DNA of 64,000 nucleotides from Alphaproteobacteria bacterium UBA1185 (GCA_002310415.1 DBYN01000006.1:154565-218564), one strand, 5' to 3'; shown: positions 6,904 through 40,866, counted from the first letter of the stretch. Notes: generated by a model not told the origin, from the sequence alone. Made by a program: numbers and translations.

Positions 6904-7866
6904 ATGGCAAGAAAATTATTTTTTTGCGTTTTGATGTTTGTATTTTGTGGCACTGTGAATGCTTTTGCGAATAATGATGAATTAATAAATCGGGCGCAAG
7001 AATTATTAGAGGCTACGCGTATAACATGTTCTGGTATTTCAAACGAGATAAGCAAAATTTCCAATATATCAAAGGCTAATACCGCGGTAACTGCTGTTGG
7101 AACTGTCGCATCAACTGGTGCTTTGGCGGTTGGTATTAAAAAATCTCAGGAAGAGCAAGAAATAGAAAAATTAATTAATGAAATATGTAAAAAAGGTGGT
7201 TGTACCGCTGAAGGCGTTGAAAAAATGTCAAATAAAGATTTTTTTGAAAATGTCATTGTAAAATTACCCAGATTATACGAATTACAAAAAAAGATAGATA
7301 AATCAAAAACATTAGGGAATTGGCGGACTGGATTGATGGCGGGAACGATTGGAACAAATTTGGCATCTGCGATAATGTCCGGATTAAATATAAATCAATC
7401 TGATTTGGTGCAACATATATCTGCGTGTAATGCGATGGTGGAAAGTATGCAGGACATAGAAATGGAACTGAGAAAAGTAGGTGTTGATTCAAGTCAAATG
7501 CAATTGATGAAAAAGGTTAATAATGTTCGGACGTGGTGCAATAAAATAGATGTCAAAGAAATAGAAAAAATAGAAAATCGAATGAAAGGTGTGCTGGGAA
7601 CGTCTGTGGTCGGTGGTGTTATTGGTATAGTTGGTGTTGGAACTAGTGCGGCTGCGAATAGTGATAAATACATGGCAATAGAAAATAAAGTTAGATTAAC
7701 AGAACAGGAAAAGAAAAAGGAACATGCGTTAAATACAACGGCAAACGTAATGGCTGGTGCGAATATCGCAACTGGTGCAGTGGAAACAGGATTAAATATA
7801 TCACTTATAATATTAATAAAAAAATTAATCCAACAAGCAGAACGTTGTGAGGAAAATTTAAAATGA
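6904..7866 (+). CDS. Hypothetical secreted protein (signal peptide, Gly/Ala/Thr-rich hydrophobic segments, coiled-coil-like)
   Basis: N-terminal signal 'MARKLFFCVLMFVFCGTVNAFA'. No recognisable catalytic motif. Repeated 'GTVASTGALAVGI' / 'GGVIGIVGVGTSAAA' segments. Confidence 0.5.
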   Translation: MARKLFFCVLMFVFCGTVNAFANNDELINRAQELLEATRITCSGISNEISKISNISKANTAVTAVGTVASTGALAVGIKKSQEEQEIEKLINEICKKGGCTAEGVEKMSNKDFFENVIVKLPRLYELQKKIDKSKTLGNWRTGLMAGTIGTNLASAIMSGLNINQSDLVQHISACNAMVESMQDIEMELRKVGVDSSQMQLMKKVNNVRTWCNKIDVKEIEKIENRMKGVLGTSVVGGVIGIVGVGTSAAANSDKYMAIENKVRLTEQEKKKEHALNTTANVMAGANIATGAVETGLNISLIILIKKLIQQAERCEENLK

Positions 7867-8058: not shown

Positions 8059-8065
8059 AATGTTT

Positions 8066-8515
8066 TTATTGATTTGCAGGTTTTTGATTTGCGGCCGCAT
8101 TTTGTCTTTGTTCATACAATGCTGCAAAATCAACAGGTTGCATTGTAAATGCTGGAAAACCCGATTCCGCTGTCAATCTTGTTACCAATGCACGAACGGC
8201 TGGGAACAATAATGTCGGTACATCTATTAATAACGTCTTCTTTTTTGTTTCTTCGTCTTTTTCTTCATATTGGACAATCCCGGTATACGTAGATTCAATC
8301 AAAAACATTGTTTTATCATCTTTTTCCAATTTAGAATGGACTTTGGTAATCAAATCAACCATAAACAGATTATTTTCAGAACCTTTGATATTTATGTCAA
8401 TGTTGATTTCTAATTTTGCCTGACCGTTGTCTTGTTTAAAGAATAATTCTGGTACATTTGGGCTTTCGAATGAGATATCTTTCAAGAATTGTGAAATAAT
8501 ATTAAACTTTGGCAT
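8066..8515 (-). CDS. secB: Protein-export chaperone SecB
   Basis: 149 aa. 'KDISFESPNVP' matches E. coli SecB 'KDISFEAPNAP', and 'LLFPAVRALVTRL...PVDFAALY' resembles 'ILFPYARE...PVNFDALF'. Confidence 0.85.
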   Translation of the reverse strand: MPKFNIISQFLKDISFESPNVPELFFKQDNGQAKLEINIDINIKGSENNLFMVDLITKVHSKLEKDDKTMFLIESTYTGIVQYEEKDEETKKKTLLIDVPTLLFPAVRALVTRLTAESGFPAFTMQPVDFAALYEQRQNAAANQKPANQ

Positions 8516-8594
8516 GTATTGCTCCTTTTTTTATCCTCGGTTTTATGATAATATAGCATTAAGGAATTGTTTTTACAAGGGGGGATAATTAAAA

Positions 8595-11821: not shown

Positions 11822-12895
11822 ATGGCAAAAAAAGAAGTTGAAAAAGACACAATCGTAGTAAAAAATCCTGCGTTGGAATCTGCTTTGGCACAAATTCAAA
11901 AACAATTCGGCAAAGAAGCTATCATGAAAATGGGTGATGGTTCTCAGCAAAATATAGAAGCGATATCATCTGGTTCTTTGGGGTTGGATATTGCGTTGGG
12001 TGTCGGCGGTTATCCGCGTGGGCGTATTGTTGAGATATATGGACCTGAATCTTCTGGTAAAACCACGTTGGCTTTGCATGCTGTGGCAGAAGCGCAAAAA
12101 AAGGGTGGCACATGTGCATATATTGATGCTGAAAATGCTTTGGATCCATCTTATGCCAGAAAACTTGGTGTCGATGTTGCTAATTTGATTATTTCCCAGC
12201 CAGATTCTGGTGAACAAGCATTGGAGATTGCAGATACTTTAATAAAATCTGGTGCAGTTGATGTCGTGGTTGTTGATTCTGTGGCTGCGCTGGTGCCAAA
12301 GGCCGAATTAGAAGGTAATATTGGCGATACCTATATGGGAACAACTGCTAGGCTGATGAGTCAGTCGTTAAAGAAATTGGCGGGTAGTGTTTCGCGTAGT
12401 AATACTTTGTTGATTTTCATAAATCAGATTCGTATGAAAATTGGTGTAATGTTCGGTAGCCCTGAAACAACGTCTGGTGGGAATGCATTAAAGTTCTATG
12501 CTTCTGTTCGTTTAGATATTCGTAGAACTGGTGCGATAAAAGATAAAGAAAATATTATTGGTAATGAAACTCGGGTAAAGGTTGTTAAAAACAAAGTTGC
12601 ACCACCTTTTAGAACGGTAGATTTTAAAATTATGTACGGCGAAGGTATTTCCAGAATAAGCGAAATATTGGATATGGGTGTGAAATACAACTTTATTGAA
12701 AAGGCTGGCAGTTTTTATTCTTATAACAATGAACGTATCGGTCAAGGCGAAGCGAACGCGCGTCAATGGTTAAAAGATAACCCAGATGCACAAAAAGAAT
12801 TACTGGATAAGATTATGGCCAAGGCAAATGGCATTGCAGAAGAAATGACAACTGGTCCGGGTGATGATTCTGATGCTGATATTGAAGGCGAATAA
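11822..12895 (+). CDS. recA: Recombinase RecA
   Basis: 357 aa. Walker A 'GPESSGKTT', L1/L2 regions '[37 protein letters not shown]', acidic C-terminus. Confidence 0.95.
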
Positions 12896-12951
12896 TAAGT
12901 GTTTTGGGCGATGCGAAAGTGTCGCCTGAATTTTGAAAATAAGGAGCAAGT

Positions 12952-13851
12952 ATGAATATAGCCAGATTTTTTGCGATGAGTGAAGTTGTATTACGTGGGC
13001 ATATTTTAAATTGGTTTTGGCGTAGTCGTGAACATCGGCGCATTGTTCGCAGTAACGTTATTTCGAATGTGATACCAAAATATTTTAAACGATATTTGCC
13101 TGCGGCTGCTGCTGTCAAAGAACGCAAAGTTATAAACGATGACAAAGGCGAAAAAATATTTACAATGTGGTTACAAGGGGAAGATAAAGCACCTGCGATG
13201 GTAAAGGCTTGTTTTAAAAGTATAAGAAAACATTGTAAACAGGAATTGGTTGTATTGGATGAAAATACAATTTTTGATTATATTACTTTGCCACAAGAAA
13301 TTATAGAAAAACGTAAACAGGGTAAAATCAAGCATGCACATTTTGCTGATATTTGTCGTGTTGAATTATTGTACGAACATGGTGGTATCTGGTTGGATTC
13401 AACTGATTTTGTTACTTCGCCAATTCCAAAGTGGATAATTGATGAAGATTTTTTTGTGTATATGGCTGGAAAAAACGTTGGCAGTCCATACAGTTTTATG
13501 CAAAATTGTTTTATTCGTGCGCGCAAAGGTGCTTATTTGCTAGATGCGTGGCGCGCGATGATTTTGGATTATTGGATGCACGAAAATCACAGTTTTGATT
13601 ATTTTATGCATCAATTGTTGTTTAAAACTTTGGTTATGAATGATGAACGTGCAAAAAAATATTTTGCAAAAATGCCGCATGTTGACCAAGATCCAACACA
13701 TGCTTTGTGGTGGACTTATCGAAATAGGCCGTTTGATAAAAAAACTTTTGACGATGTTACGTCTGGGGCTTTTTTTCAAAAGGTAACATATCGTGGTACT
13801 GAAAATCCAATTCCTGGTTCTTTTGAAGATGTTATGATAAATAAAATGTAG
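12952..13851 (+). CDS. Glycosyltransferase, DXD sugar-binding family (Gly_transf_sug / capsule-synthesis-like)
   Basis: 'HFADICRVELLYEHGGIWLDSTDFV' matches the conserved 'RLELLYKYGGIYLDTDV' block of the TcdA/Och1-type GT-A family. Confidence 0.6.
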   Translation: MNIARFFAMSEVVLRGHILNWFWRSREHRRIVRSNVISNVIPKYFKRYLPAAAAVKERKVINDDKGEKIFTMWLQGEDKAPAMVKACFKSIRKHCKQELVVLDENTIFDYITLPQEIIEKRKQGKIKHAHFADICRVELLYEHGGIWLDSTDFVTSPIPKWIIDEDFFVYMAGKNVGSPYSFMQNCFIRARKGAYLLDAWRAMILDYWMHENHSFDYFMHQLLFKTLVMNDERAKKYFAKMPHVDQDPTHALWWTYRNRPFDKKTFDDVTSGAFFQKVTYRGTENPIPGSFEDVMINKM

Positions 13852-13859
13852 GAGATTTT

Positions 13860-14882
13860 ATGCAGCCCAAAATATCAATTATTATACCGATGTATAATGT
13901 AGAAAAGTATCTGCGAAGATGTCTGGATTCTGTAAAAAATCAAACTTTTTCTGATTGGGTTGCAATTTGTGTCGACGATGGTTCGCTTGATAATTGTGGT
14001 AAAATCGCAGAAGAATATGCAAAAACAGATAAACGTTTTATTGTTATTCACAAAAAAAATGGTGGGTTGTCCGATGCCAGAAATGCGGGTATGCCGTATG
14101 CAAATGGTAAATATATAATGTTTTTAGATAGTGATGATTTTATTCATCCACAAACAATGGAAATTGCGTATAATTTGGCAGAAAAAAATAAATCAGATAT
14201 TGTTTCTTTTACTTATGACAGATTTTATCGCCCACAATTGATGGTGCGACATGTGTTGCATTTGGATACTGATAATGTCGTACCGTTTGGTGTAAAAAAG
14301 AGATATGATATTGAAAAAATACAAACACGTACAACAAATGATATTTTTGAATATGCAACAGAACGGACTCATAACAAAACAAATCCAAATCGAAAATGGT
14401 TAATTAAACATTGTCAGGTTTGGAAAAATTTATATAAAAAATCTTTAATCAAAGATATTCCTTTTATCAAGGGGATTTTGTTTGAAGATTTTCCATGGTG
14501 GTCTGCTGTTATGCTGAAACGTCCGCGTACAACAGTTGTTCCTTTACCATTATATTATTATATACCGAATTTTGGTGGTATTGTATTAAGTGAAAAGCAA
14601 TTAAGAATTATGCACAGTTTATGTGTGGGTATAAAAACTGCTTACAAATTATATAAACAAAAAGCAGATAAGATTCAAATGAAAAAATGGCAATCTTTAT
14701 TTATGTGGTTTTTTGTAAATTGGGCTTTTCGCAAATTAAAATATTTGAAAAATGATACAGAAATACAATCTGCGCGTGATGAGTTTATTGAAATGAACAA
14801 GATTGGTGTATTTAATGATGTTCCAGATGAATGGTATGATTTGCGTGAAAAAATATACAAATTTATCGGTGATTATAAATGA
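13860..14882 (+). CDS. Glycosyltransferase family 2 (paralog A)
   Basis: 'ISIIIPMYNVEKYLRRCLDSV..Q...DWVAICVDDGSLD' and the 'LDSDD' DXD motif. Contains an A8 tract at 14052-14059. Confidence 0.8.
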   Translation: MQPKISIIIPMYNVEKYLRRCLDSVKNQTFSDWVAICVDDGSLDNCGKIAEEYAKTDKRFIVIHKKNGGLSDARNAGMPYANGKYIMFLDSDDFIHPQTMEIAYNLAEKNKSDIVSFTYDRFYRPQLMVRHVLHLDTDNVVPFGVKKRYDIEKIQTRTTNDIFEYATERTHNKTNPNRKWLIKHCQVWKNLYKKSLIKDIPFIKGILFEDFPWWSAVMLKRPRTTVVPLPLYYYIPNFGGIVLSEKQLRIMHSLCVGIKTAYKLYKQKADKIQMKKWQSLFMWFFVNWAFRKLKYLKNDTEIQSARDEFIEMNKIGVFNDVPDEWYDLREKIYKFIGDYK

Positions 14883-15886
14883 AAATACATAGACCAAAAA
14901 TATCAATAATAATACCGGTGTATAATACAGAAAAGTATTTATCCAGATGTTTGGATAGTTTATTGAATCAGACTTTTCAAGATTGGTGTGCTATTTGTAT
15001 TGATGATGGTTCGACAGATAACAGCGCAAAGATTTTGGATAAATATACAAAAAATGATAATCGTTTTATTGTTATACATAAAAAAAATGCAGGTGTTTCA
15101 TCCGCGCGTAATGATGGTGTAACGAAGGCAAATTCTGAATATGTTATGTTTTTGGATTCTGATGACTGTATTCATCCACAAACATTAGAAATAGCGTATA
15201 ATACCGCGGTAAAAAATAATGTTGATATTGTTTCTTTTAAATATGATGCCAATTTATATAAAGATGCGTTAAATAGTGCAAATGTTGATGATTTGTTAAA
15301 AACACGCATAGTAATACGGTATGATTTGCAAAAAATACGATATAAACAAACAGATAGTCTAATAAAATTTGCGACAGAAAGAAATCATTCTTTTGGTCGA
15401 TATAAAATACGGCACTGTTATCCTGTGGTGCATTTATATAAATTGGATTTGATTAAAGGTATTAAATTTAATACAAAAATAAAGGTTACAGAAGATTTTC
15501 CATTTTGGACATCTGTATTGTTGCGTAATCCGAAAAGCATTATTTTGAATATCCCTTTATATTTTTATATTCCAAATAAAACGTCTGCTTTGGGGGCTAC
15601 AAATATCGAAAAGTTTTTTGATAATGTTTCGTTATCTATAATCGAATCGTTCAAAACCGTTTTAAAAAATGAACCGCAAAGTATGTGGGTTAAAATCTGG
15701 AAACGTGAATTTTTATGGCCGTTTATAATAACTTGTGTTCGTTCTGTACGCGCTATACAGGACAAACAGCGGGTTATAGAACGTTTAATAAAAATGAAAG
15801 AAATGAATATATTTGATAATCCGCCAACATTTCGTGCACGAAAGTATAAACATAGAATCGAAAAGATTATATCCCCGATTTCTTAA
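14879..15886 (+). CDS. Glycosyltransferase family 2 (paralog B, tandem duplicate)
   Basis: Same architecture, 'ISIIIPVYNTEKYLSRCLDSL...DDGSTDNS...LDSDD'. ATGA overlap with the upstream gene. Contains an A8 tract at 15080-15087. Confidence 0.8.
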   Translation: MKIHRPKISIIIPVYNTEKYLSRCLDSLLNQTFQDWCAICIDDGSTDNSAKILDKYTKNDNRFIVIHKKNAGVSSARNDGVTKANSEYVMFLDSDDCIHPQTLEIAYNTAVKNNVDIVSFKYDANLYKDALNSANVDDLLKTRIVIRYDLQKIRYKQTDSLIKFATERNHSFGRYKIRHCYPVVHLYKLDLIKGIKFNTKIKVTEDFPFWTSVLLRNPKSIILNIPLYFYIPNKTSALGATNIEKFFDNVSLSIIESFKTVLKNEPQSMWVKIWKREFLWPFIITCVRSVRAIQDKQRVIERLIKMKEMNIFDNPPTFRARKYKHRIEKIISPIS

Positions 15887-16709
15887 ATCTTGTTGGAAGT
15901 TTAATAGTTCGTTTTATGCCGAACATGGCTGGTTTTCGTAGTGCATAAATTGGACGGCAATACGTTTGTAAAATACGTGCAATATGTATCCATTTTTCAT
16001 TTGAAGGTTTTGTATTTGTAACCGCATTTATTGTTCCGTTTCCGCGTCTTTGTAAATGGTTTAACCAATCTTTACCGCGTTTTTTCGCTTTGTTTTCTAA
16101 CATTTTCATATCAATTGCGCCAAAGTGTAAAAGATATAAATTTTTATCCAGGTGGAAATTATGGCGTTTTATACTGTGAAATCCGCTGCCCCAAAACACA
16201 GGTTTATTTATAACAACTGGTTTGGTATAACGCGTGGAAAGCAGGGCATATTCGCGTTGTTGTAATAAGGGTGCTTTTATATCCAACTGTTTTTCATAAT
16301 TCAAATGTTGACCGATATCCAAGCCTAATCCAGATAATGTAGTGTTTATATATTTTTCAGATAAATATTCGGATAATGTTTTGTGTGTATTTGGGTCAAC
16401 AATTAAAAATTCATCGCTGTCACAACCAATAACAATATCATAAGTTTTTAATAATATATGTGCCAATTCAGAAAGTTTATTTATTCTGTATTTATCGCCA
16501 GACGAACGGGACATTGGTACGTATGGCAATTTTGTTATATGTGCTTTGCCGGCATTTTCCGGTATTTTTTGGTCAAATCCATCTAGTAATATATACAGAT
16601 TTTCTGTGCCAAAATTTTTTCCATAATAAGCAATCCAGCGCGACAAGAAAAATTCATCATCACGTGCCATTGTTATTGCTGCTATGCGTTTTTGTTTTTT
16701 CATAGACAT
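15867..16709 (-). CDS. Putative GT-A fold glycosyltransferase (unclassified family), opposite strand within GT island
   Basis: 280 aa. 'IVIGCDSDEFLIV' DXD-like acidic motif after a predicted beta strand. No other family-defining motif recognised. Confidence 0.35.
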   Translation of the reverse strand: MSMKKQKRIAAITMARDDEFFLSRWIAYYGKNFGTENLYILLDGFDQKIPENAGKAHITKLPYVPMSRSSGDKYRINKLSELAHILLKTYDIVIGCDSDEFLIVDPNTHKTLSEYLSEKYINTTLSGLGLDIGQHLNYEKQLDIKAPLLQQREYALLSTRYTKPVVINKPVFWGSGFHSIKRHNFHLDKNLYLLHFGAIDMKMLENKAKKRGKDWLNHLQRRGNGTINAVTNTKPSNEKWIHIARILQTYCRPIYALRKPAMFGIKRTIKLPTRFKKSGI

Positions 16710-16780
16710 ATATTCCTTGGTTGTCTATAATACGAGTACATTATATATATAATTGAATGTTTTTGCAATAAGGGAAAAAT

Positions 16781-17662
16781 ATGAAAAAACCAAAAGTTGC
16801 GATTTTGTATATTGCTTTGGGCAGATACATTTGTTTTTGGAAAGATTTTTACGAATCATGTGAAAAGCATTTGTTAAATTGTGATAAACATTATTTTATT
16901 TGGACGGATAATAAATCTTTTGATTATTACGATGCTAAAAATGTTACTGTTTCTGGTGCCCAAAAAATGGGCTGGCCTTTTGATACTGTTTTACGATTTG
17001 AAATGTTTTTACAACGACAAAAGGAATTGCAAAAATACGATTATGTTTATTTCTTTAATGCAAATATGTTGTTTGTAAACGATGTTGATTTGGCTGAAAT
17101 TACACCACAATCATGGCACGAATCTGGTATAGTTGCTGGTGTTCATCCGTTTTTTTATAAATCTGATAATCCAGATATATTACCGTATGAAAGACGTTGC
17201 CAATCTACCGCGGCGGTGCCGTATGGTATAGGCAAATATTATGTATGCGGTGCATTTAATGGTGGATGTGTGGATGCTTTTTTTAAAATGTGTAAAGTTT
17301 TATCAAAAAATGTCCAAACTGATTTAAATAATGGTATAGAAGCCATTGTTGATGACGAATCGCATTTAAATGCGTATTTGGTTGACAAGACTTTTTTACT
17401 TGCGGGTCGCGCATACGGTTTTCCCGAAGGACATTTAAGACACATTCGTCAAAAAGAACGTGATTTAATTAAAATCATATCAAGACACAAAGAAAACCCA
17501 AAGTATGGTGGTGTTCGTTGGTTGCGTGGTCAAACAGATAGAAAAACACCAAATAATATATTTACGCCACTTTTGATAAAAATGTGTAGGTTTATTTCTG
17601 TGTTTATAATGAATCCACAAAAACGCAGAAAGGTAAAAAAATATTTTGGTTCGTATTCGTAA
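16781..17662 (+). CDS. Glycosyltransferase family 6 (alpha-1,3-Gal/GalNAc transferase, ABO blood-group transferase-like)
   Basis: 'HYFIWTD' (compare GT6 'VHYYVFTD'). 'HPFFYKSDNPDILPYERRCQSTAAVPYGIGKYYVCGAFNGG' matches '[40 protein letters not shown]'. 'NGIEAIVDDESHLNAYLV' matches 'NGIEAVWHDESHLNKYLL'. Confidence 0.8.
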   Translation: MKKPKVAILYIALGRYICFWKDFYESCEKHLLNCDKHYFIWTDNKSFDYYDAKNVTVSGAQKMGWPFDTVLRFEMFLQRQKELQKYDYVYFFNANMLFVNDVDLAEITPQSWHESGIVAGVHPFFYKSDNPDILPYERRCQSTAAVPYGIGKYYVCGAFNGGCVDAFFKMCKVLSKNVQTDLNNGIEAIVDDESHLNAYLVDKTFLLAGRAYGFPEGHLRHIRQKERDLIKIISRHKENPKYGGVRWLRGQTDRKTPNNIFTPLLIKMCRFISVFIMNPQKRRKVKKYFGSYS

Positions 17663-17677
17663 AAAAGGGGGAATATC

Positions 17678-18661
17678 GTGATTGAGAAAATAAATATAGC
17701 ATTTTGTTTTGATGAAAACATGTATATGTTGGCGGGTGTTGCTATTGCATCTTTGTTATATCATGCTATGAATAATTGTGCGTATGATATATATTGTATT
17801 GTTCCAGAAGCATTTGCAAAGTCGAAGCGTGATGAATTAGTTGCGATGGTTGAGAGTAAAGATAAAAATTCAAAAATTATATTTTTAAATGCAAATCGCG
17901 ATTTTGATAATTCTGTGGTAAAACAGTATACGCCAGGTATTTTTTATAGATTTATGTTACTGAAATTATTGCCAAAAAATATAGATAAAATAATTTATTG
18001 CGATGTAGATGTAACATTTCATGATAATTTAATAGATTTGTATAATATAGATATGAAGGATAATTTGATTGCTGGCGTCGCAGATGCTGATCAATTATGT
18101 CGTGCATACCCAAACAATGGATCGTATATTAATAGTGGTATATTGTTGATGAATGTTAGTAAACTAAGATTAATAAACGCTTATGATGAGTGGCTAAAAT
18201 TATCTAAGCAAGATATTTTTGCTTATCCGGATCAGGATATATTAAACAAAACATGTGACGGTAAAATTTTGTATTTACCTATGAGGTATAATTATATGCC
18301 TGGCGCTGGCGGGCGGTTTGAAAAACCTGTGGCTGATGGAATTTACACAATGTCAGATTATCAAGATGCCGTTCGAAATCCTGCGATAATTCATTATATT
18401 TTACGGCAGCCATGGAAAAATCGTGAAAATTTAGTCGGAGATTTATGGTGGAAATATGCTTATATGACACCGTTTTATGCATATTTCAGGTCAAAGATAG
18501 AACATCAACCAGCTTTAATAAAAAAAGATGTTTATCTGTTTAATTTGATTAAAATCATGACAATAAAAATACGTCAAACAAAACACAAATATTACTTGTT
18601 TGGTTTTTTACCTTTATTTCTGATTAAAATACCAGACAGATTTGATAGAAGACAAGTATAA
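17678..18661 (+). CDS. Glycosyltransferase family 8 (LPS alpha-1,2/1,3-glucosyl/galactosyltransferase RfaJ/RfaI-like)
   Basis: GTG start with an 'aagggggaa' RBS. 'INIAFCFDENMYMLAGVAIASL', 'YCDVDV' DXD, 'NSGILLMNV' and C-terminal 'IIHYILRQPWK' match GT8 family motifs. Confidence 0.75.
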   Translation: MIEKINIAFCFDENMYMLAGVAIASLLYHAMNNCAYDIYCIVPEAFAKSKRDELVAMVESKDKNSKIIFLNANRDFDNSVVKQYTPGIFYRFMLLKLLPKNIDKIIYCDVDVTFHDNLIDLYNIDMKDNLIAGVADADQLCRAYPNNGSYINSGILLMNVSKLRLINAYDEWLKLSKQDIFAYPDQDILNKTCDGKILYLPMRYNYMPGAGGRFEKPVADGIYTMSDYQDAVRNPAIIHYILRQPWKNRENLVGDLWWKYAYMTPFYAYFRSKIEHQPALIKKDVYLFNLIKIMTIKIRQTKHKYYLFGFLPLFLIKIPDRFDRRQV

Positions 18662-18695
18662 TTGTATGTGATAAAAGAAATTTATTATATAATAT

Positions 18696-18719
18696 AAAAA
18701 CCGCTATACAGCGGTTTTT
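18696..18719. terminator. Bidirectional terminator hairpin (aaaaccgctatacagcggttttt)
   Basis: Lies between convergent GT8 and typA. Member of a repeated hairpin family (see 48699 and 52744). Confidence 0.6.
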
Positions 18720-18743
18720 AAGTGTTTTATCGTTTTTATATCT

Positions 18744-20588
18744 TTAATCAGTTTCAGCAAAACGATATGCTTTTTTACGTTTACCACTATCTAATTCTTT
18801 TTTGCGCAAACGAATCGTTGCCGGTGTAACTTCGACCAATTCATCATCTTGGATATACGATAACGCTTCTTCCAAAGACATTTTTCTTGGTGGTGCCAAG
18901 AACAATTTTTCATCGGCAGTTACACTGCGAACGTTTGTTAATTGTTTACCGCGGACTGGGTTAACTTCGATGTCATTTTCTTTGCTGTGTTCACCAACAA
19001 TCATGCCACTATACACTTCTGTTTGTGGACCAACAAATAACACACCTCGTGGTTCCAAATTATGTAGTGCATACGTTGTTGTAGAACCCGCTTCCATAGA
19101 AACCAAAACGCCCGGACGGTATTGTGTAATTGGGCCACGATATGAATCGTATTTATCAAAAACCCTGTTCATAATGCCTGTGCCACGCGTATCTGTTCTG
19201 AATTCAGATAAATATCCAATCAAACCGCGTGATGGCGCAGAAAATACAATGCGTGTTTTACCAATACCAGATGGTTTCATCTCTGTAATTGTTGCTTTGC
19301 GCTTAGTCATTTTTTCAATAACAACACCGCTGAATTCATCGTCTACATCAATAACTACTTCTTCGATTGGTTCAAGTTTTTCACCGTTTTCATTTGTTTG
19401 CATAACAACACGTGGACGTGATACAGATAATTCAAAGCCTTCACGACGCATAGTTTCAATTAAAATACCCAATTGTAATTCACCACGACCAGATACTTCA
19501 AATGCTTCATTATTTTCACTTTGGGAAACACGTAATGCGATGTTTGTTTCTGCTTCTCGGAATAATCTTTCACCGATCATACGCGATGTTAATTTTTTGC
19601 CGGATTTACCAGCCAACGGCGAAGTATTCACAAAAAATGTCATAGTTAATGTTGGGGGGTCAATCGGCATAGCAGGGATTGGTTCGTTTACAGATGGGTC
19701 GCAAAGCGTATCTGCCACGGTTGCTTTTGAAAAACCAGCCAAAACAACAATGTCACCAGCAGATGCAGAATCCCTAGATACTTTATTTATACCTTGATGT
19801 TCAATAATTTTTGTGATTTTGGCATTTTCGATAAATTCACCTTTCATATTTATTGCTTTCACGGTTTGCCCAACATGGACTGTTCCAGATTCGATTTTAC
19901 CAGTCAAAATGCGACCAACATAGGGGTCTGCCTCTAATGTAGTTGCCAACATAGTAAAAGGTGCATCAATTTGACATCTTGTTCCATTGCAATCTGGGGC
20001 AGGGACATGGTCCACAATCAATTGGAATAGTGGTGTTAAATCTTTGTTTGGATTATCAATATCTTTTAAATCACGAATCGCCCAACCATCACGACCACAT
20101 GCATATAAATATGGAAAATCAAGTTGTGAATCATTTGCACCCAATTTATCAAATAAATCAAAAGTTTCAGTTAAAACTTCTTCTGGTCTTGCATCACCAC
20201 GGTCAATTTTATTTATACATACAATAGGGCGCAAATTTAATTTTAATGCCTTGGATAATACGAACTTTGTTTGAGGTAATGGACCTTCGGCGCTGTCTAC
20301 CAATAAAACTACACCATCAACCATAGATAAAATACGTTCAACTTCGCCACCAAAATCAGCGTGTCCCGGGGTGTCAACGATATTAATTTTATATTCGCCC
20401 CATTGGATAGATGTTGGTTTTGCTGATATAGTAATTCCTCGTTCGCGTTCGATATCACCGCTGTCCATAACGCGGTCTTCGACGTGTTCATTTTCACGAA
20501 ATGTACCAGCCTGTTTCAACATATTATCAACCAAAGTCGTTTTACCATGGTCAACGTGTGCAATAATTGCAATATTACGAATTTTCAT
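18744..20588 (-). CDS. typA: Translational GTPase TypA/BipA
   Basis: 'MKIRNIAIIAHVDHGKTTLVD', 'DTPGHADF', 'NKIDR' and EF-G-like domains. Start set at MKIRN (20588) with an 'aagg' RBS; the longer ORF extension was rejected. Confidence 0.9.
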   Translation of the reverse strand: MKIRNIAIIAHVDHGKTTLVDNMLKQAGTFRENEHVEDRVMDSGDIERERGITISAKPTSIQWGEYKINIVDTPGHADFGGEVERILSMVDGVVLLVDSAEGPLPQTKFVLSKALKLNLRPIVCINKIDRGDARPEEVLTETFDLFDKLGANDSQLDFPYLYACGRDGWAIRDLKDIDNPNKDLTPLFQLIVDHVPAPDCNGTRCQIDAPFTMLATTLEADPYVGRILTGKIESGTVHVGQTVKAINMKGEFIENAKITKIIEHQGINKVSRDSASAGDIVVLAGFSKATVADTLCDPSVNEPIPAMPIDPPTLTMTFFVNTSPLAGKSGKKLTSRMIGERLFREAETNIALRVSQSENNEAFEVSGRGELQLGILIETMRREGFELSVSRPRVVMQTNENGEKLEPIEEVVIDVDDEFSGVVIEKMTKRKATITEMKPSGIGKTRIVFSAPSRGLIGYLSEFRTDTRGTGIMNRVFDKYDSYRGPITQYRPGVLVSMEAGSTTTYALHNLEPRGVLFVGPQTEVYSGMIVGEHSKENDIEVNPVRGKQLTNVRSVTADEKLFLAPPRKMSLEEALSYIQDDELVEVTPATIRLRKKELDSGKRKKAYRFAETD

Positions 20589-38838: not shown

Positions 38839-40866
38839 ATGCGTGTTTATGTAAATTACGAAAATAAAACATGGAAAAAATACGATATTGATTTTGAAAA
38901 AATTGCGTCAGCGGCGGTTTTGGATGCTGATAAAGATGCAGAAGTTTCTGTTACTTTGGTAAATGATAAAAAAATTCAACGGTTAAACAAACAATATCGT
39001 GGTGTGGATAAACCAACGAATGTATTGTCTTTCGAATTGGGGGATGATTTATTATTGGGTGATATATTTATATCTTTGGATACTGTTGTCAAAGAAGCCC
39101 ATGCTGCATGTATTTCTGTGGAAGAACACACTGCACATATGATTGTTCATGGTATGTTACATTTACAGGGGTACGATCATTTGAATGATAAAGATGCTAT
39201 AATTATGGAACAGAAAGAAATTAAAATATTAAAACAATTAGGTTATAAAAACCCGTATGAAGAATCGAATAATGATTATCCACAATGTACAGAAGAATCT
39301 TGTTGTCCTGGTAGATGGATAACTAAATTAAAATCAATTAAAATCAGGCAAAATAGTTTTTGGCAATATTTTTTGGCATCCGTATTTGGAATTATTTGTT
39401 CTTTTGGTTTTGCTCCGTTTAATTTATGGATGTTGTCTTTATTTGCTATTGGTGGTATGTATTATTTAATAACCAGAAAGACCGGAAATATTAGTTTTAT
39501 GAAATCTTGGTTTGTGGCATTTCCGTTTGGGGCTTTTTATGGTATGTCTATGTTTTGGTGGGTTTTTCATTCGGTTTATGTTGTACCAGAATTAACAGAT
39601 AAATTTGCAATATGGGTTATTCCTGGATTGTTGGGCATAGGTTTGATTTGTGGTTTTATATTATCGTTACCTTTTGCTGTGATTCGTTATATTTCAAGCA
39701 AACCAGCGAATAGGGCGATTTTATTTGCTGTATCCTGGACGTTAGTGTTATGGTTGCGCGAATGGTTTTTAACTGGTTTTCCATGGAATCCAATATCTAA
39801 TATAACTATGTCTATGCCAATGGTTATAAATTCTATCGCTTTGTGGGGATCGTTGGGTTTGTCTTTTGTTATAGTTGGGTTGATTGCAAGTTTTATAGAA
39901 TTATTACGTTACAGAAAGTCAAAGTCTTGCATTGTTGTGTTTGTAGTGTATGCAGTATTGTTTTTAATCGGGTGTATTTATGGTTTGCATAATATGCATA
40001 AATCACAACCAAATAATATGGAAAATATCCCGATGATAAGGATTATACAGCCCGCTAAGTCTGCTGAATACAAAAGATTAAGGGTTGAACATAGTATTAG
40101 AGAAGTTGTACAGAAAAGATACCAAGATTTGATTGATTGGGCAAAAGAAGATAGAACCGTAGAACCAGATATAATAGTTTATCCAGAAACTGTCTATCCG
40201 TATTGGGTTGCGGAACCTGAATTTCCTTTGTCACGAATATTAAATACAAATGTTATTATGGGCGTTCTTACTTATAATGCCGGTAAAAAGTACAATTCTA
40301 TGGTCATAGCAGATAAAACAGGTGAAATTCAACATTTGTATAACAAAGCACATTTGGTACCGTTTGGGGAATACAGACCTTTTGGGGATATAATTCCAAC
40401 ACCTGGACAATTAAGTCCTGGAAGCCAAGCAAAAAAAATAATGTCTATAAATACCAAATATGGTGATTTTAAGGTTGCTCCGGCTATTTGTTATGAAATA
40501 ATTTTTTCTGATTCTTTGGTGCCACGTGGCGGAACACCTGATGCTGTTGTAAATATAACTAATGACACATGGTTTGGGCAAACACCAGGCGTATATCAGC
40601 ATTTAGATATGGTCAGACGTTACGCAATTGAATCAGGTTTGCCGGTTATTCGTGCAAATTATTCTGGGATAAGTGCTTTTGTTATGCCAGACGGCAATGT
40701 TGAATCAATGTTGTATGTTGGTCAAACGGGGCATTTAGACGGTTTTGTATGGGGAGCTCATAATACTGTATATAGAATACTGGGGCGTGATATGTGGGTG
40801 ATAATTATTTTGTTGTTTTCAATAATTGTTTTAAAATCCATATCCGTATTTCAGAAGAAAGATTAG
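38839..40866 (+). CDS. Fusion ORF: YbeY endoribonuclease domain (aa 1-150) + apolipoprotein N-acyltransferase Lnt (aa ~180-675)
   Basis: YbeY Zn motif 'HGMLHLQGYDH'. Then the Lnt TM region ('FGFAPFNLWMLSLFA'), CN-hydrolase E/K/C ('PETVYPYW', 'YNKAHLVPFGEY', 'APAICYEIIF'). One continuous frame with no in-frame Met at the domain junction. Confidence 0.7.
   Translation: MRVYVNYENKTWKKYDIDFEKIASAAVLDADKDAEVSVTLVNDKKIQRLNKQYRGVDKPTNVLSFELGDDLLLGDIFISLDTVVKEAHAACISVEEHTAHMIVHGMLHLQGYDHLNDKDAIIMEQKEIKILKQLGYKNPYEESNNDYPQCTEESCCPGRWITKLKSIKIRQNSFWQYFLASVFGIICSFGFAPFNLWMLSLFAIGGMYYLITRKTGNISFMKSWFVAFPFGAFYGMSMFWWVFHSVYVVPELTDKFAIWVIPGLLGIGLICGFILSLPFAVIRYISSKPANRAILFAVSWTLVLWLREWFLTGFPWNPISNITMSMPMVINSIALWGSLGLSFVIVGLIASFIELLRYRKSKSCIVVFVVYAVLFLIGCIYGLHNMHKSQPNNMENIPMIRIIQPAKSAEYKRLRVEHSIREVVQKRYQDLIDWAKEDRTVEPDIIVYPETVYPYWVAEPEFPLSRILNTNVIMGVLTYNAGKKYNSMVIADKTGEIQHLYNKAHLVPFGEYRPFGDIIPTPGQLSPGSQAKKIMSINTKYGDFKVAPAICYEIIFSDSLVPRGGTPDAVVNITNDTWFGQTPGVYQHLDMVRRYAIESGLPVIRANYSGISAFVMPDGNVESMLYVGQTGHLDGFVWGAHNTVYRILGRDMWVIIILLFSIIVLKSISVFQKKD

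Follow-up and report, generated by a model that had tools for sequence, protein, structure and literature searches.

The recA-typA interval of a contig from Alphaproteobacteria bacterium UBA1185 (GCA_002310415.1, DBYN01000006.1:154565-218564; this 64,000-nucleotide stretch was analysed as a whole and is referred to as the window) contains six consecutive glycosyltransferase (GT) genes, gtA to gtF, at positions 12952-18661. Comparison with related genomes indicated that the interval is a fixed slot, filled with GT genes in every complete locus, and that its content varies between species, a conclusion that we consider well supported. The host, which is uncultured, is one of the Candidatus Enterousia-like alphaproteobacteria of the ruminant gut (order Rs-D84). 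On balance, we favour the proposal that the encoded enzymes build the outer, species-specific portion of an oligosaccharide anchored to lipid, probably the outer core of lipooligosaccharide (LOS) or lipopolysaccharide (LPS).

All six open reading frames (ORFs) were found where the initial annotation had placed them, and every one of them scored above the Pfam gathering threshold for a GT family. The flanking core genes named there, recA and typA, gave strong matches to NCBIfam equivalog models (TIGR02012 and TIGR01394). The bidirectional terminator proposed at 18696-18719 was recovered on both strands at 18695-18720, and the description of the cluster as transferase-only also held, since genes for a flippase, a polymerase, a chain-length regulator or nucleotide-sugar synthesis were all absent from the 64-kb window. 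Spacing from gtA to gtF was tight (8, -4, -20, 71 and 15 nt, the -20 being a convergent overlap). The features of the slot are as follows, with positions counted from the first nucleotide of the window:

11822-12895, plus strand: recA, left anchor of the slot (TIGR02012, 536 bits; PF00154, 464 bits).
12903-12934, plus strand: GC-rich hairpin followed by TTTT, directly 3' of recA (RNAfold, -16.1 kcal/mol).
12952-13851, plus strand: gtA, GT32-like, core gene (Caps_synth PF05704, 219 bits; Gly_transf_sug, 32 bits).
13860-14882, plus strand: gtB, GT2 with a DSDD motif, core gene (Glycos_transf_2 PF00535, 133 bits).
14879-15886, plus strand: gtC, second GT2, variable cassette at position 3 (Glycos_transf_2 PF00535, 129 bits).
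15867-16709, minus strand: gtD, GT2_4-like GT-A enzyme with a DSDE motif, core gene (Glyco_tranf_2_4 PF13704, 39.5 bits, cut-off 27.5).
16710-16780: 71-bp spacer between gtD and gtE, a candidate divergent promoter region with sigma-70-like consensus matches only.
16781-17662, plus strand: gtE, GT6, variable cassette (Glyco_transf_6 PF03414, 84 bits, cut-off 25).
17371-17482, plus strand: apparent short recombination tract inside gtE, holding 25 of the 33 gtE differences between haplotypes.
17678-18661, plus strand: gtF, GT8 with a DVD motif and a KYYLFG hydrophobic C-terminal tail (Glyco_transf_8 PF01501, 109 bits).
18695-18720, both strands: bidirectional intrinsic terminator between the convergent gtF and typA (11-pair stem with 4 GC pairs, flanked by A5 and T5).
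18744-20588, minus strand: typA/bipA, right anchor of the slot (TIGR01394, 904 bits).

Loci were sampled from the two closest GTDB species (L015, L016), from three contigs found through GT6 homologues (L097, L098, L100) and from 80 metagenome contigs found through gtD. Those carrying both recA and typA gave 29 complete slots, including the window and a contig of a second haplotype of the same species (L006); L097 was left out because it stops before typA. The flanks were conserved across the 29 loci (recA 89-100% identical, typA 90-100%), and the interval between them held 4.8-8.8 kb of genes in every case, with 5-9 GTs per slot. Clustering of the 186 slot proteins at 50% identity gave 25 families, nearly all of them GTs (Caps_synth, several GT2, GT2_4, RgpF-like, GT61, GT4, Stealth, GT6, GT8, GT92 and HtrL-like), arranged in 25 architectures. 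The variability that the initial annotation described as frequent between strains in such loci was seen here between species. Apart from the same-species pair, the compared loci differed by at least ~10% in recA and typA DNA and thus represent different species. The families were distributed among the slots as follows:

gtA (Caps_synth): recovered in 28 of 29 slots.
gtB (GT2, family F1): 29 of 29.
gtD (GT2_4-like): 29 of 29.
RgpF-like gene downstream of gtD: 22 of 29; absent in the window.
GT61: 10 of 29.
GT4: 9 of 29.
Stealth: 7 of 29.
GT6 (family F8): 6 of 29.
GT8 (family F9): 5 of 29, plus 1 divergent.
GT92: 5 of 29.
HtrL/YibB-like (below threshold): 4 of 29.
Hexapep acetyltransferase: 2 of 29.
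NUDIX protein: 2 of 29.
Further GT2 and GT4-like families: scattered.

The Hexapep acetyltransferase and the NUDIX protein were the only accessories that are not GTs. No flippase, polymerase or chain-length regulator (Wzx/Wzy/Wzz), priming phosphoglycosyl transferase, ATP-binding cassette (ABC) exporter or nucleotide-sugar gene was seen in the 29 slots, the absence of primer and export genes being read from four slots with Pfam gene tables and from scanned representatives of the families. Outside this species, the gtC family (F13) was found in a single locus (L145), the usual occupant of position 3 being a GT4 gene (9 other slots). Of the 6 slots with a GT6 gene, 5 have the GT8 gene after it. 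Cassette content was unrelated to the relatedness of the flanks (Spearman -0.17), and the genes differed in how closely their identity followed the flank phylogeny: gtD (rho 0.85) and the RgpF-like gene (rho 0.78) did so closely, gtB weakly (rho 0.28) and gtA not at all (rho 0.06). In this picture, the centre of the slot is inherited vertically, and the two arms beside it are reshuffled or undergo allelic exchange; gtA, gtB and gtD form the core of the slot, and gtC and the GT6-GT8 pair are swappable cassettes. Outside the clade, recA was not followed by a GT cluster. In Rhodobacteraceae, recA is separated from the downstream typA by a few kb, with no homologue of the six GTs.

By its motifs, gtE is a bacterial metal-independent GT6 of the BoGT6a type, a member of the alpha-1,3-galactose/N-acetylgalactosamine (Gal/GalNAc) transferase family. 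Searches against PDB sequences matched it to BoGT6a (4ayj) with an E value of 6e-46 and to the human blood-group transferases GTA and GTB with an E value of ~1e-21; its score against NCBIfam Gltr_6 was 232 bits, slightly below the 250-bit cut-off. The FFNANM segment of gtE aligns with FFNANL of BoGT6a and with VDVDM of the human enzymes, so that NAN replaces the DXD motif, and NAN was kept in 108 of 110 gtE homologues. The DDES segment aligns with HDES of BoGT6a and GTA/GTB, and the catalytic glutamate (Glu192 in BoGT6a, Glu303 in GTA) is conserved. Downstream of the catalytic domain is a C-terminal tail of ~45 residues with a basic-hydrophobic-basic pattern, TDRK...LLIKMCRFISVFIM...KRRKVKKYFGSYS, which is conserved in the clade. 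The NXN motif, the catalytic glutamate and a tail of this pattern are the features that define the bacterial GT6 branch (PMC3516806).

The donor-site triplet of gtE, at the positions equivalent to human 266-268, is Cys-Gly-Ala (C156-G157-A158), and the same triplet was present in 84 of 110 aligned GT6 sequences. It is Met-Gly-Ala in GTB, Leu-Gly-Gly in GTA and Ala-Gly-Gly in BoGT6a. Since gtE has alanine where the human B transferase has alanine and the A transferase has glycine, the comparison suggests that its donor would be a hexose (Gal) rather than an N-acetylhexosamine (GalNAc). The position that accommodates the acceptor fucose is serine in gtE, isoleucine in BoGT6a and tryptophan in alpha3GalT, an enzyme that does not use a fucosylated acceptor; with serine at this position, a 2'-fucosylated acceptor is conceivable for gtE. 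The gtE clade is large and made up of mostly unnamed proteins of ~293 residues, its few named members coming from gut Alphaproteobacteria and some Bacteroidales. One GT6 homologue (P0032, 65% identical) lies at a different site in another alphaproteobacterial metagenome-assembled genome (MAG; L099, 10001-15270), next to an APH-type kinase, an RgpF-like gene and a TOD1_MUCI70 plus TupA-like ATP-grasp protein, with a toxin-antitoxin-like pair (Gp49/HI1420) nearby; the GT6 cassette is thus also found at sites outside the Enterousia-type slot. The Synechococcus phages B23 and B3 (MN695335.1, MN695334.1) encode GT6 homologues (32% identity) that adjoin a GT11 gene. GT11 and GT6 together form the classical pairing for H antigen plus A/B-type antigen, which is absent from the Enterousia slots.

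The remaining enzymes could be assigned to families with varying precision. The best PDB matches of gtF were WbbM (6u4b, E 5e-15) and LgtC (1g9r/1ss9, ~5e-14), both distant homologues. The Pfam GT8 profile starts at residue 6 of the GTG-started ORF, and the product is therefore likely to be the 327-residue form; its tail reads KYYLFGFLPLFLIK. A PDB sequence search with gtA returned nothing. Its AlphaFold2 model had a predicted local distance difference test score (pLDDT) of 78.6, and the top fold matches were Och1 (GT32), SetA, YeGT and glycogenin with template-modelling (TM) scores of only 0.3-0.4, values sufficient to propose a retaining GT-A fold for gtA but not a specificity. The product of gtC is a paralogue of that of gtB (43% identical, highest over the N-terminal 120 residues), and the 5' parts of the two genes share a 300-nt stretch that is 73% identical. 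The PDB sequence search with gtD gave nothing meaningful, and its AlphaFold2 model, built with 30 close homologues, was too poor for use (pLDDT 52.7). The GT-A assignment of gtD comes from PF13704 alone, with which its orthologues score 46 bits.

Proteins with unrelated catalytic domains were found to end in similar tails. In 5 of 5 GT8, 6 of 6 GT6 and 3 of 4 members of GT2 family F12, the C-terminus consists of a stretch rich in lysine and arginine, then YYLFG or YFGSY, then a hydrophobic segment. The corresponding sites are 17530-17662 in gtE and 18560-18661 in gtF, and further examples occur in GT2 families F12 and F22 of other loci (L111, L118, L163, L170, L162). The shared tail probably anchors all of these proteins to the membrane and so lets one cassette stand in for another; its presence on unrelated GT domains is in keeping with exchangeable peripheral-membrane enzymes that would act on a lipid-linked substrate.

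We infer the acceptor, the order of transfer, the donor sugars and a role in antigenic or receptor diversification. The six peripheral-membrane GTs would extend a lipid-anchored acceptor sugar by sugar on the cytoplasmic side of the inner membrane. This acceptor would most likely be lipid A-core, giving the outer core of an LOS, and flipping and export of the completed glycolipid would fall to MsbA and the Lpt system, encoded outside the slot. The near-universal gtA, gtB and gtD would build the common inner part, and the exchangeable cassettes at the other positions would set the species-specific outer residues. Here, these cassettes are gtC and the GT6-GT8 pair; from the mechanism of its two families, the pair would add terminal alpha-linked sugars.

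Several observations are consistent with this scheme. None of the 29 versions of the slot has genes for priming, flipping, polymerisation or export, which agrees with an LOS-type pathway. LptF/G is encoded in the window, ~6 kb from the locus. The nearest solved relatives of gtF, WbbM and LgtC, serve in O-antigen and LOS synthesis, respectively. Bacterial GT6 enzymes have been described as membrane-associated and as acting in LPS O-antigen synthesis (PMC3516806). On an 887-kb contig from a genome of reduced size (L101), a GT6 gene whose product is 58% identical to gtE adjoins genes for Caps_synth, Glyco_transf_9 (GT9), HldE, GmhA, GmhB, HldD (388 bits, above cut-off) and an MsbA-like ABC protein; this is an LPS inner-core neighbourhood. 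With a GT9-family gene, ADP-heptose genes and an MsbA-like transporter beside this GT6, the link to LPS core made in the initial annotation is plausible.

Other observations weigh against an LOS outer core. No inner-core gene (waa, Kdo, heptose) was found in the 64-kb window or adjoining any of the 29 slots. The association with LPS core comes from a single, more distant genome, in which the Caps_synth protein shares no more than 28% identity with gtA over 120 residues and the GT9 match is weak (28 bits). None of the slots carries a GT11 fucosyltransferase, and the bacterial GT6 enzymes with characterised activity depend on a Fuc-alpha-1,2-Gal acceptor. Moreover, capsule or wall-polysaccharide synthesis is the more typical setting of the Caps_synth, Stealth and RgpF-like families.

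This last point leads to a possible, though doubtful, alternative, namely that the locus makes a capsule, an O-polysaccharide or a wall-type polymer on undecaprenyl phosphate, with the primer and an ABC- or synthase-type exporter encoded elsewhere. Caps_synth (gtA), the Stealth hexose-1-phosphate transferase (7 of 29 slots) and the RgpF-like protein (22 of 29) are usual in capsule or rhamnan-type synthesis, WbbM, the best solved match of gtF, is an O-antigen polymerising GT, and ABC-exported polymers are likewise assembled entirely by cytoplasmic GTs. Against a polymer, genes for a primer, an exporter, a chain terminator and nucleotide-sugar synthesis are absent from the 29 slots and from the 64-kb window, 5-9 single-domain GTs per slot suit an oligosaccharide better than a repeat polymer, and the homologous GT6 in L101 adjoins ADP-heptose and MsbA genes.

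It is very unlikely that the enzymes glycosylate proteins, such as adhesins or targets in a partner or host to which they would be secreted, instead of a lipid-linked glycan. The fold search with gtA also matched effector glucosyltransferases (Legionella SetA, YeGT and PaToxG), the window encodes a coupling protein of the VirD4 type, and members of the lineage have been proposed to depend on a partner. The gtA matches, with TM scores of 0.3-0.4 only, nevertheless reflect the generic GT-A fold; the GTs are small, single-domain proteins with membrane-anchoring tails, and both a secretion signal and an oligosaccharyltransferase are lacking. To our knowledge, arrays of nine GTs have no counterpart among effector sets.

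The initial annotation had seen an inserted island between recA and typA. The mean GC content of the six genes was 0.320, against 0.356 +/- 0.026 for the other 51 genes of the window (z -1.4), a difference that arises mainly from codon positions 1 and 2; GC3 was 0.240 against 0.266 (z -0.75), and codon-usage distances of 0.081-0.101 compared with 0.098 +/- 0.023 for the other genes. Their composition, which had been put forward as a check for foreign origin, is thus within the range of the window. Neither flanking direct or inverted repeats nor tandem repeats were found at the locus, where the only repeat is the gtB/gtC paralogy. In agreement with the initial annotation, no mobile-element signature was detected, with no tRNA, phage-type integrase or flanking repeat; the nearest integrase-family gene encodes a housekeeping recombinase of the XerC/D type, ~5 kb away. 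No GT6 relative above 40% identity was found in phage and plasmid collections, and a mobile element was rejected on the absence of tRNA, flanking repeats and such relatives. An empty recA-typA junction was not seen in any of the 29 loci. Insertion at this junction was consequently not borne out: composition is native, and core genes are shared among the species. Recent acquisition of a genomic island between two core genes has in its favour a GC content slightly below the surroundings (0.30-0.35 against 0.36-0.40) and the lack of gtC and of the GT6-GT8 pair in most related species, and is nonetheless scarcely credible when 29 of 29 slots are occupied, the core genes are common, gtD is vertically inherited, GC3 and codon-usage distance do not stand out within the window, and tRNA, integrase, flanking repeats and phage or plasmid GT6 relatives above 40% identity are all lacking.

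Within the species, contigs encoding identical RecA or GT6 proteins all fell into two collinear haplotypes, too few to settle presence or absence of the genes at the strain level. The window and the second haplotype (L006-L009) form one same-species pair with identical architecture, collinear and 98.8-100% identical. Between the two, gtE differs by 33 single-nucleotide polymorphisms (SNPs; 3.7%), against 0.1-1.7% for the other genes from mltA to trxB, and gtF differs at 1 of 984 sites. As many as 25 of the 33 SNPs lie within ~110 bp in the C-terminal third of gtE (17371-17482), which looks like a short imported recombination or gene-conversion tract. Codon changes in gtE comprised 15 synonymous and 10 non-synonymous ones; the donor triplet C156-G157-A158 is invariant, and a Cys/Arg polymorphism between the haplotypes lies 7 residues downstream, at C163, and not on a donor-specificity residue. 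Phase variation was rejected, as the only candidate tracts are runs of eight A in gtB and gtC, no length difference was seen between haplotypes and there are no tandem repeats. Upstream of the slot, a 320-residue ORF at 6904-7866 with no Pfam match is replaced by a gene for a 227-residue UDG-like protein in the second haplotype (L006-L008), and the secB region (8063-8520) is 4.3% divergent between haplotypes, against ~0.5-1% in most other genes compared. The two sites mark a second hotspot of recombination or replacement.

The arrangement of signals around the genes bears on their expression. A ribosome-binding site (AAGGAG) and the ATG of gtA lie ~20 nt past the hairpin that follows recA. Hairpins with differing stem sequences were present at this place in most of the 29 related loci; a hairpin with a short T run was found, among others, in L098, L105, L110, L118, L119, L126, L136, L142, L148, L159, L163, L170, L171 and L173. 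The element at 12903-12934 is a putative recA terminator or attenuator and may gate read-through into the GT genes. With this hairpin after recA and the gtA start only ~20 nt further on, transcription of gtA to gtC probably needs read-through from recA. The gtD/gtE spacer holds the top sigma-70-like match of the region (16703-16731, plus strand, 11/12) and another in the opposite direction (16768-16740, minus strand, 10/12), both of them consensus matches only. On the right side of the slot, the start of typA is probably at 20588, giving a protein of 614 residues like its called homologues.

The assignment of the host is based on several lines of evidence. Identical RecA and GT6 proteins are encoded on contigs from cattle and buffalo gut metagenomes, at species level the closest representatives, with RecA 91-92% identical, are MAGs of uncultured Alphaproteobacteria, and one homologue of gtD, 82% identical, carries the name Candidatus Enterousia merdequi. 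Enterousia (Rs-D84) genomes measure 0.75-1.0 Mb, lack the tricarboxylic acid (TCA) cycle and a respiratory chain and have an incomplete glycolysis; a partner-dependent lifestyle has been suggested (PMC12306168). The window, with ~35% GC and densely packed housekeeping genes, fits this description. We found no publication describing this recA-typA locus or the LPS of Rs-D84. A tRNA scan and an Rfam search of the whole window returned zero tRNA and zero Rfam matches. Elsewhere in the window, the minus-strand gene at 54668-56938 encodes a coupling protein of the VirD4/TraG type of type IV secretion systems (T4SS-DNA_transf, TrwB_AAD_bind, TraG-D_C), in a lineage with genomes below 1 Mb; its neighbours at 53405-54652 and 52787-53392 have no assigned function or are LpoB-like. 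An apparent gene fusion at 38839-40866 (plus strand) joins YbeY endoribonuclease and apolipoprotein N-acyltransferase (LNT_N and CN_hydrolase) in one ORF of 675 residues.

Variable surface-glycan loci are common, and this one is of a kind already known. The lineage has lost the TCA cycle and respiration as well as part of glycolysis (PMC12306168), yet it keeps 5-9 GT genes at one site. Reshuffling of these genes between nearly all species despite genome reduction points to strong diversifying selection on the cell surface, exerted by phage, host immunity or partner recognition. A more speculative idea, which we hold to be rather unlikely as a whole, is that the slot serves as a recombination-driven glycan barcode: the flanks and the gtD core would act as homology anchors, a near species-specific oligosaccharide would set partner or host recognition or phage escape, and GT6 and GT8 would display terminal alpha-Gal or blood-group-B-like epitopes. 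Were this true, these epitopes would mimic ruminant host glycans or prime against them. The recA-typA locus offers a practical typing marker for Enterousia-like populations in ruminant metagenomes, and it exposes a large, mostly unannotated GT6 clade whose members may produce alpha-Gal or blood-group-like antigens in the ruminant gut.

Among characterised enzymes, gtE most resembles BoGT6a of Bacteroides ovatus (4ayj/4ayl/4cj8; PMC3516806, PMC3961637), the two being alike over the full catalytic domain, in the NAN motif, in the catalytic glutamate and in the C-terminal tail. They differ at the donor site, where BoGT6a, specific for GalNAc, has Ala-Gly-Gly and gtE has Cys-Gly-Ala, with the alanine of human GTB, and at the acceptor site, where the isoleucine of BoGT6a and the tryptophan of alpha3GalT correspond to the small residue serine. 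Furthermore, gtE has no GT11 gene nearby to make an H-type acceptor. The similarity of gtF to LgtC, the GT8 alpha-1,4-galactosyltransferase of Neisseria meningitidis (1g9r/1ga8), and to the GT8 domain of WbbM (6u4b) extends to the GT8 fold and the DXD motif (DVD; E ~1e-14), and is too distant for donor, acceptor or linkage to be transferred. LgtC associates with the membrane through a basic and aromatic C-terminus.

At the level of the locus, the enterobacterial galF-gnd O-antigen locus is an example of a fixed-site hypervariable glycan locus. The recA-typA slot is similar in that housekeeping flanks would serve as recombination anchors and content is decoupled from the core phylogeny. It differs in gene content, as galF-gnd-type loci have nucleotide-sugar genes together with wzx/wzy or wzm/wzt, and the slot has none in 29 examples. 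LOS outer-core loci, such as the LOS locus classes of Campylobacter jejuni and the lgt clusters of Neisseria and Moraxella, are also variable in gene content. The recA-typA slot differs from them in its lack of homopolymer or repeat phase variation and of sialic-acid or heptosyltransferase genes, in its anchors, which are recA and typA rather than inner-core genes, and in that its variation is seen between species. Phase-variable simple-sequence tracts are typical of GT genes in Neisseria, Haemophilus and Campylobacter and are not universal. The slot resembles these LOS loci in its near-pure transferase content without Wzx, Wzy or Wzz, in its fixed site and in its mosaic of GT2, GT8 and GT4 genes that differs by lineage.

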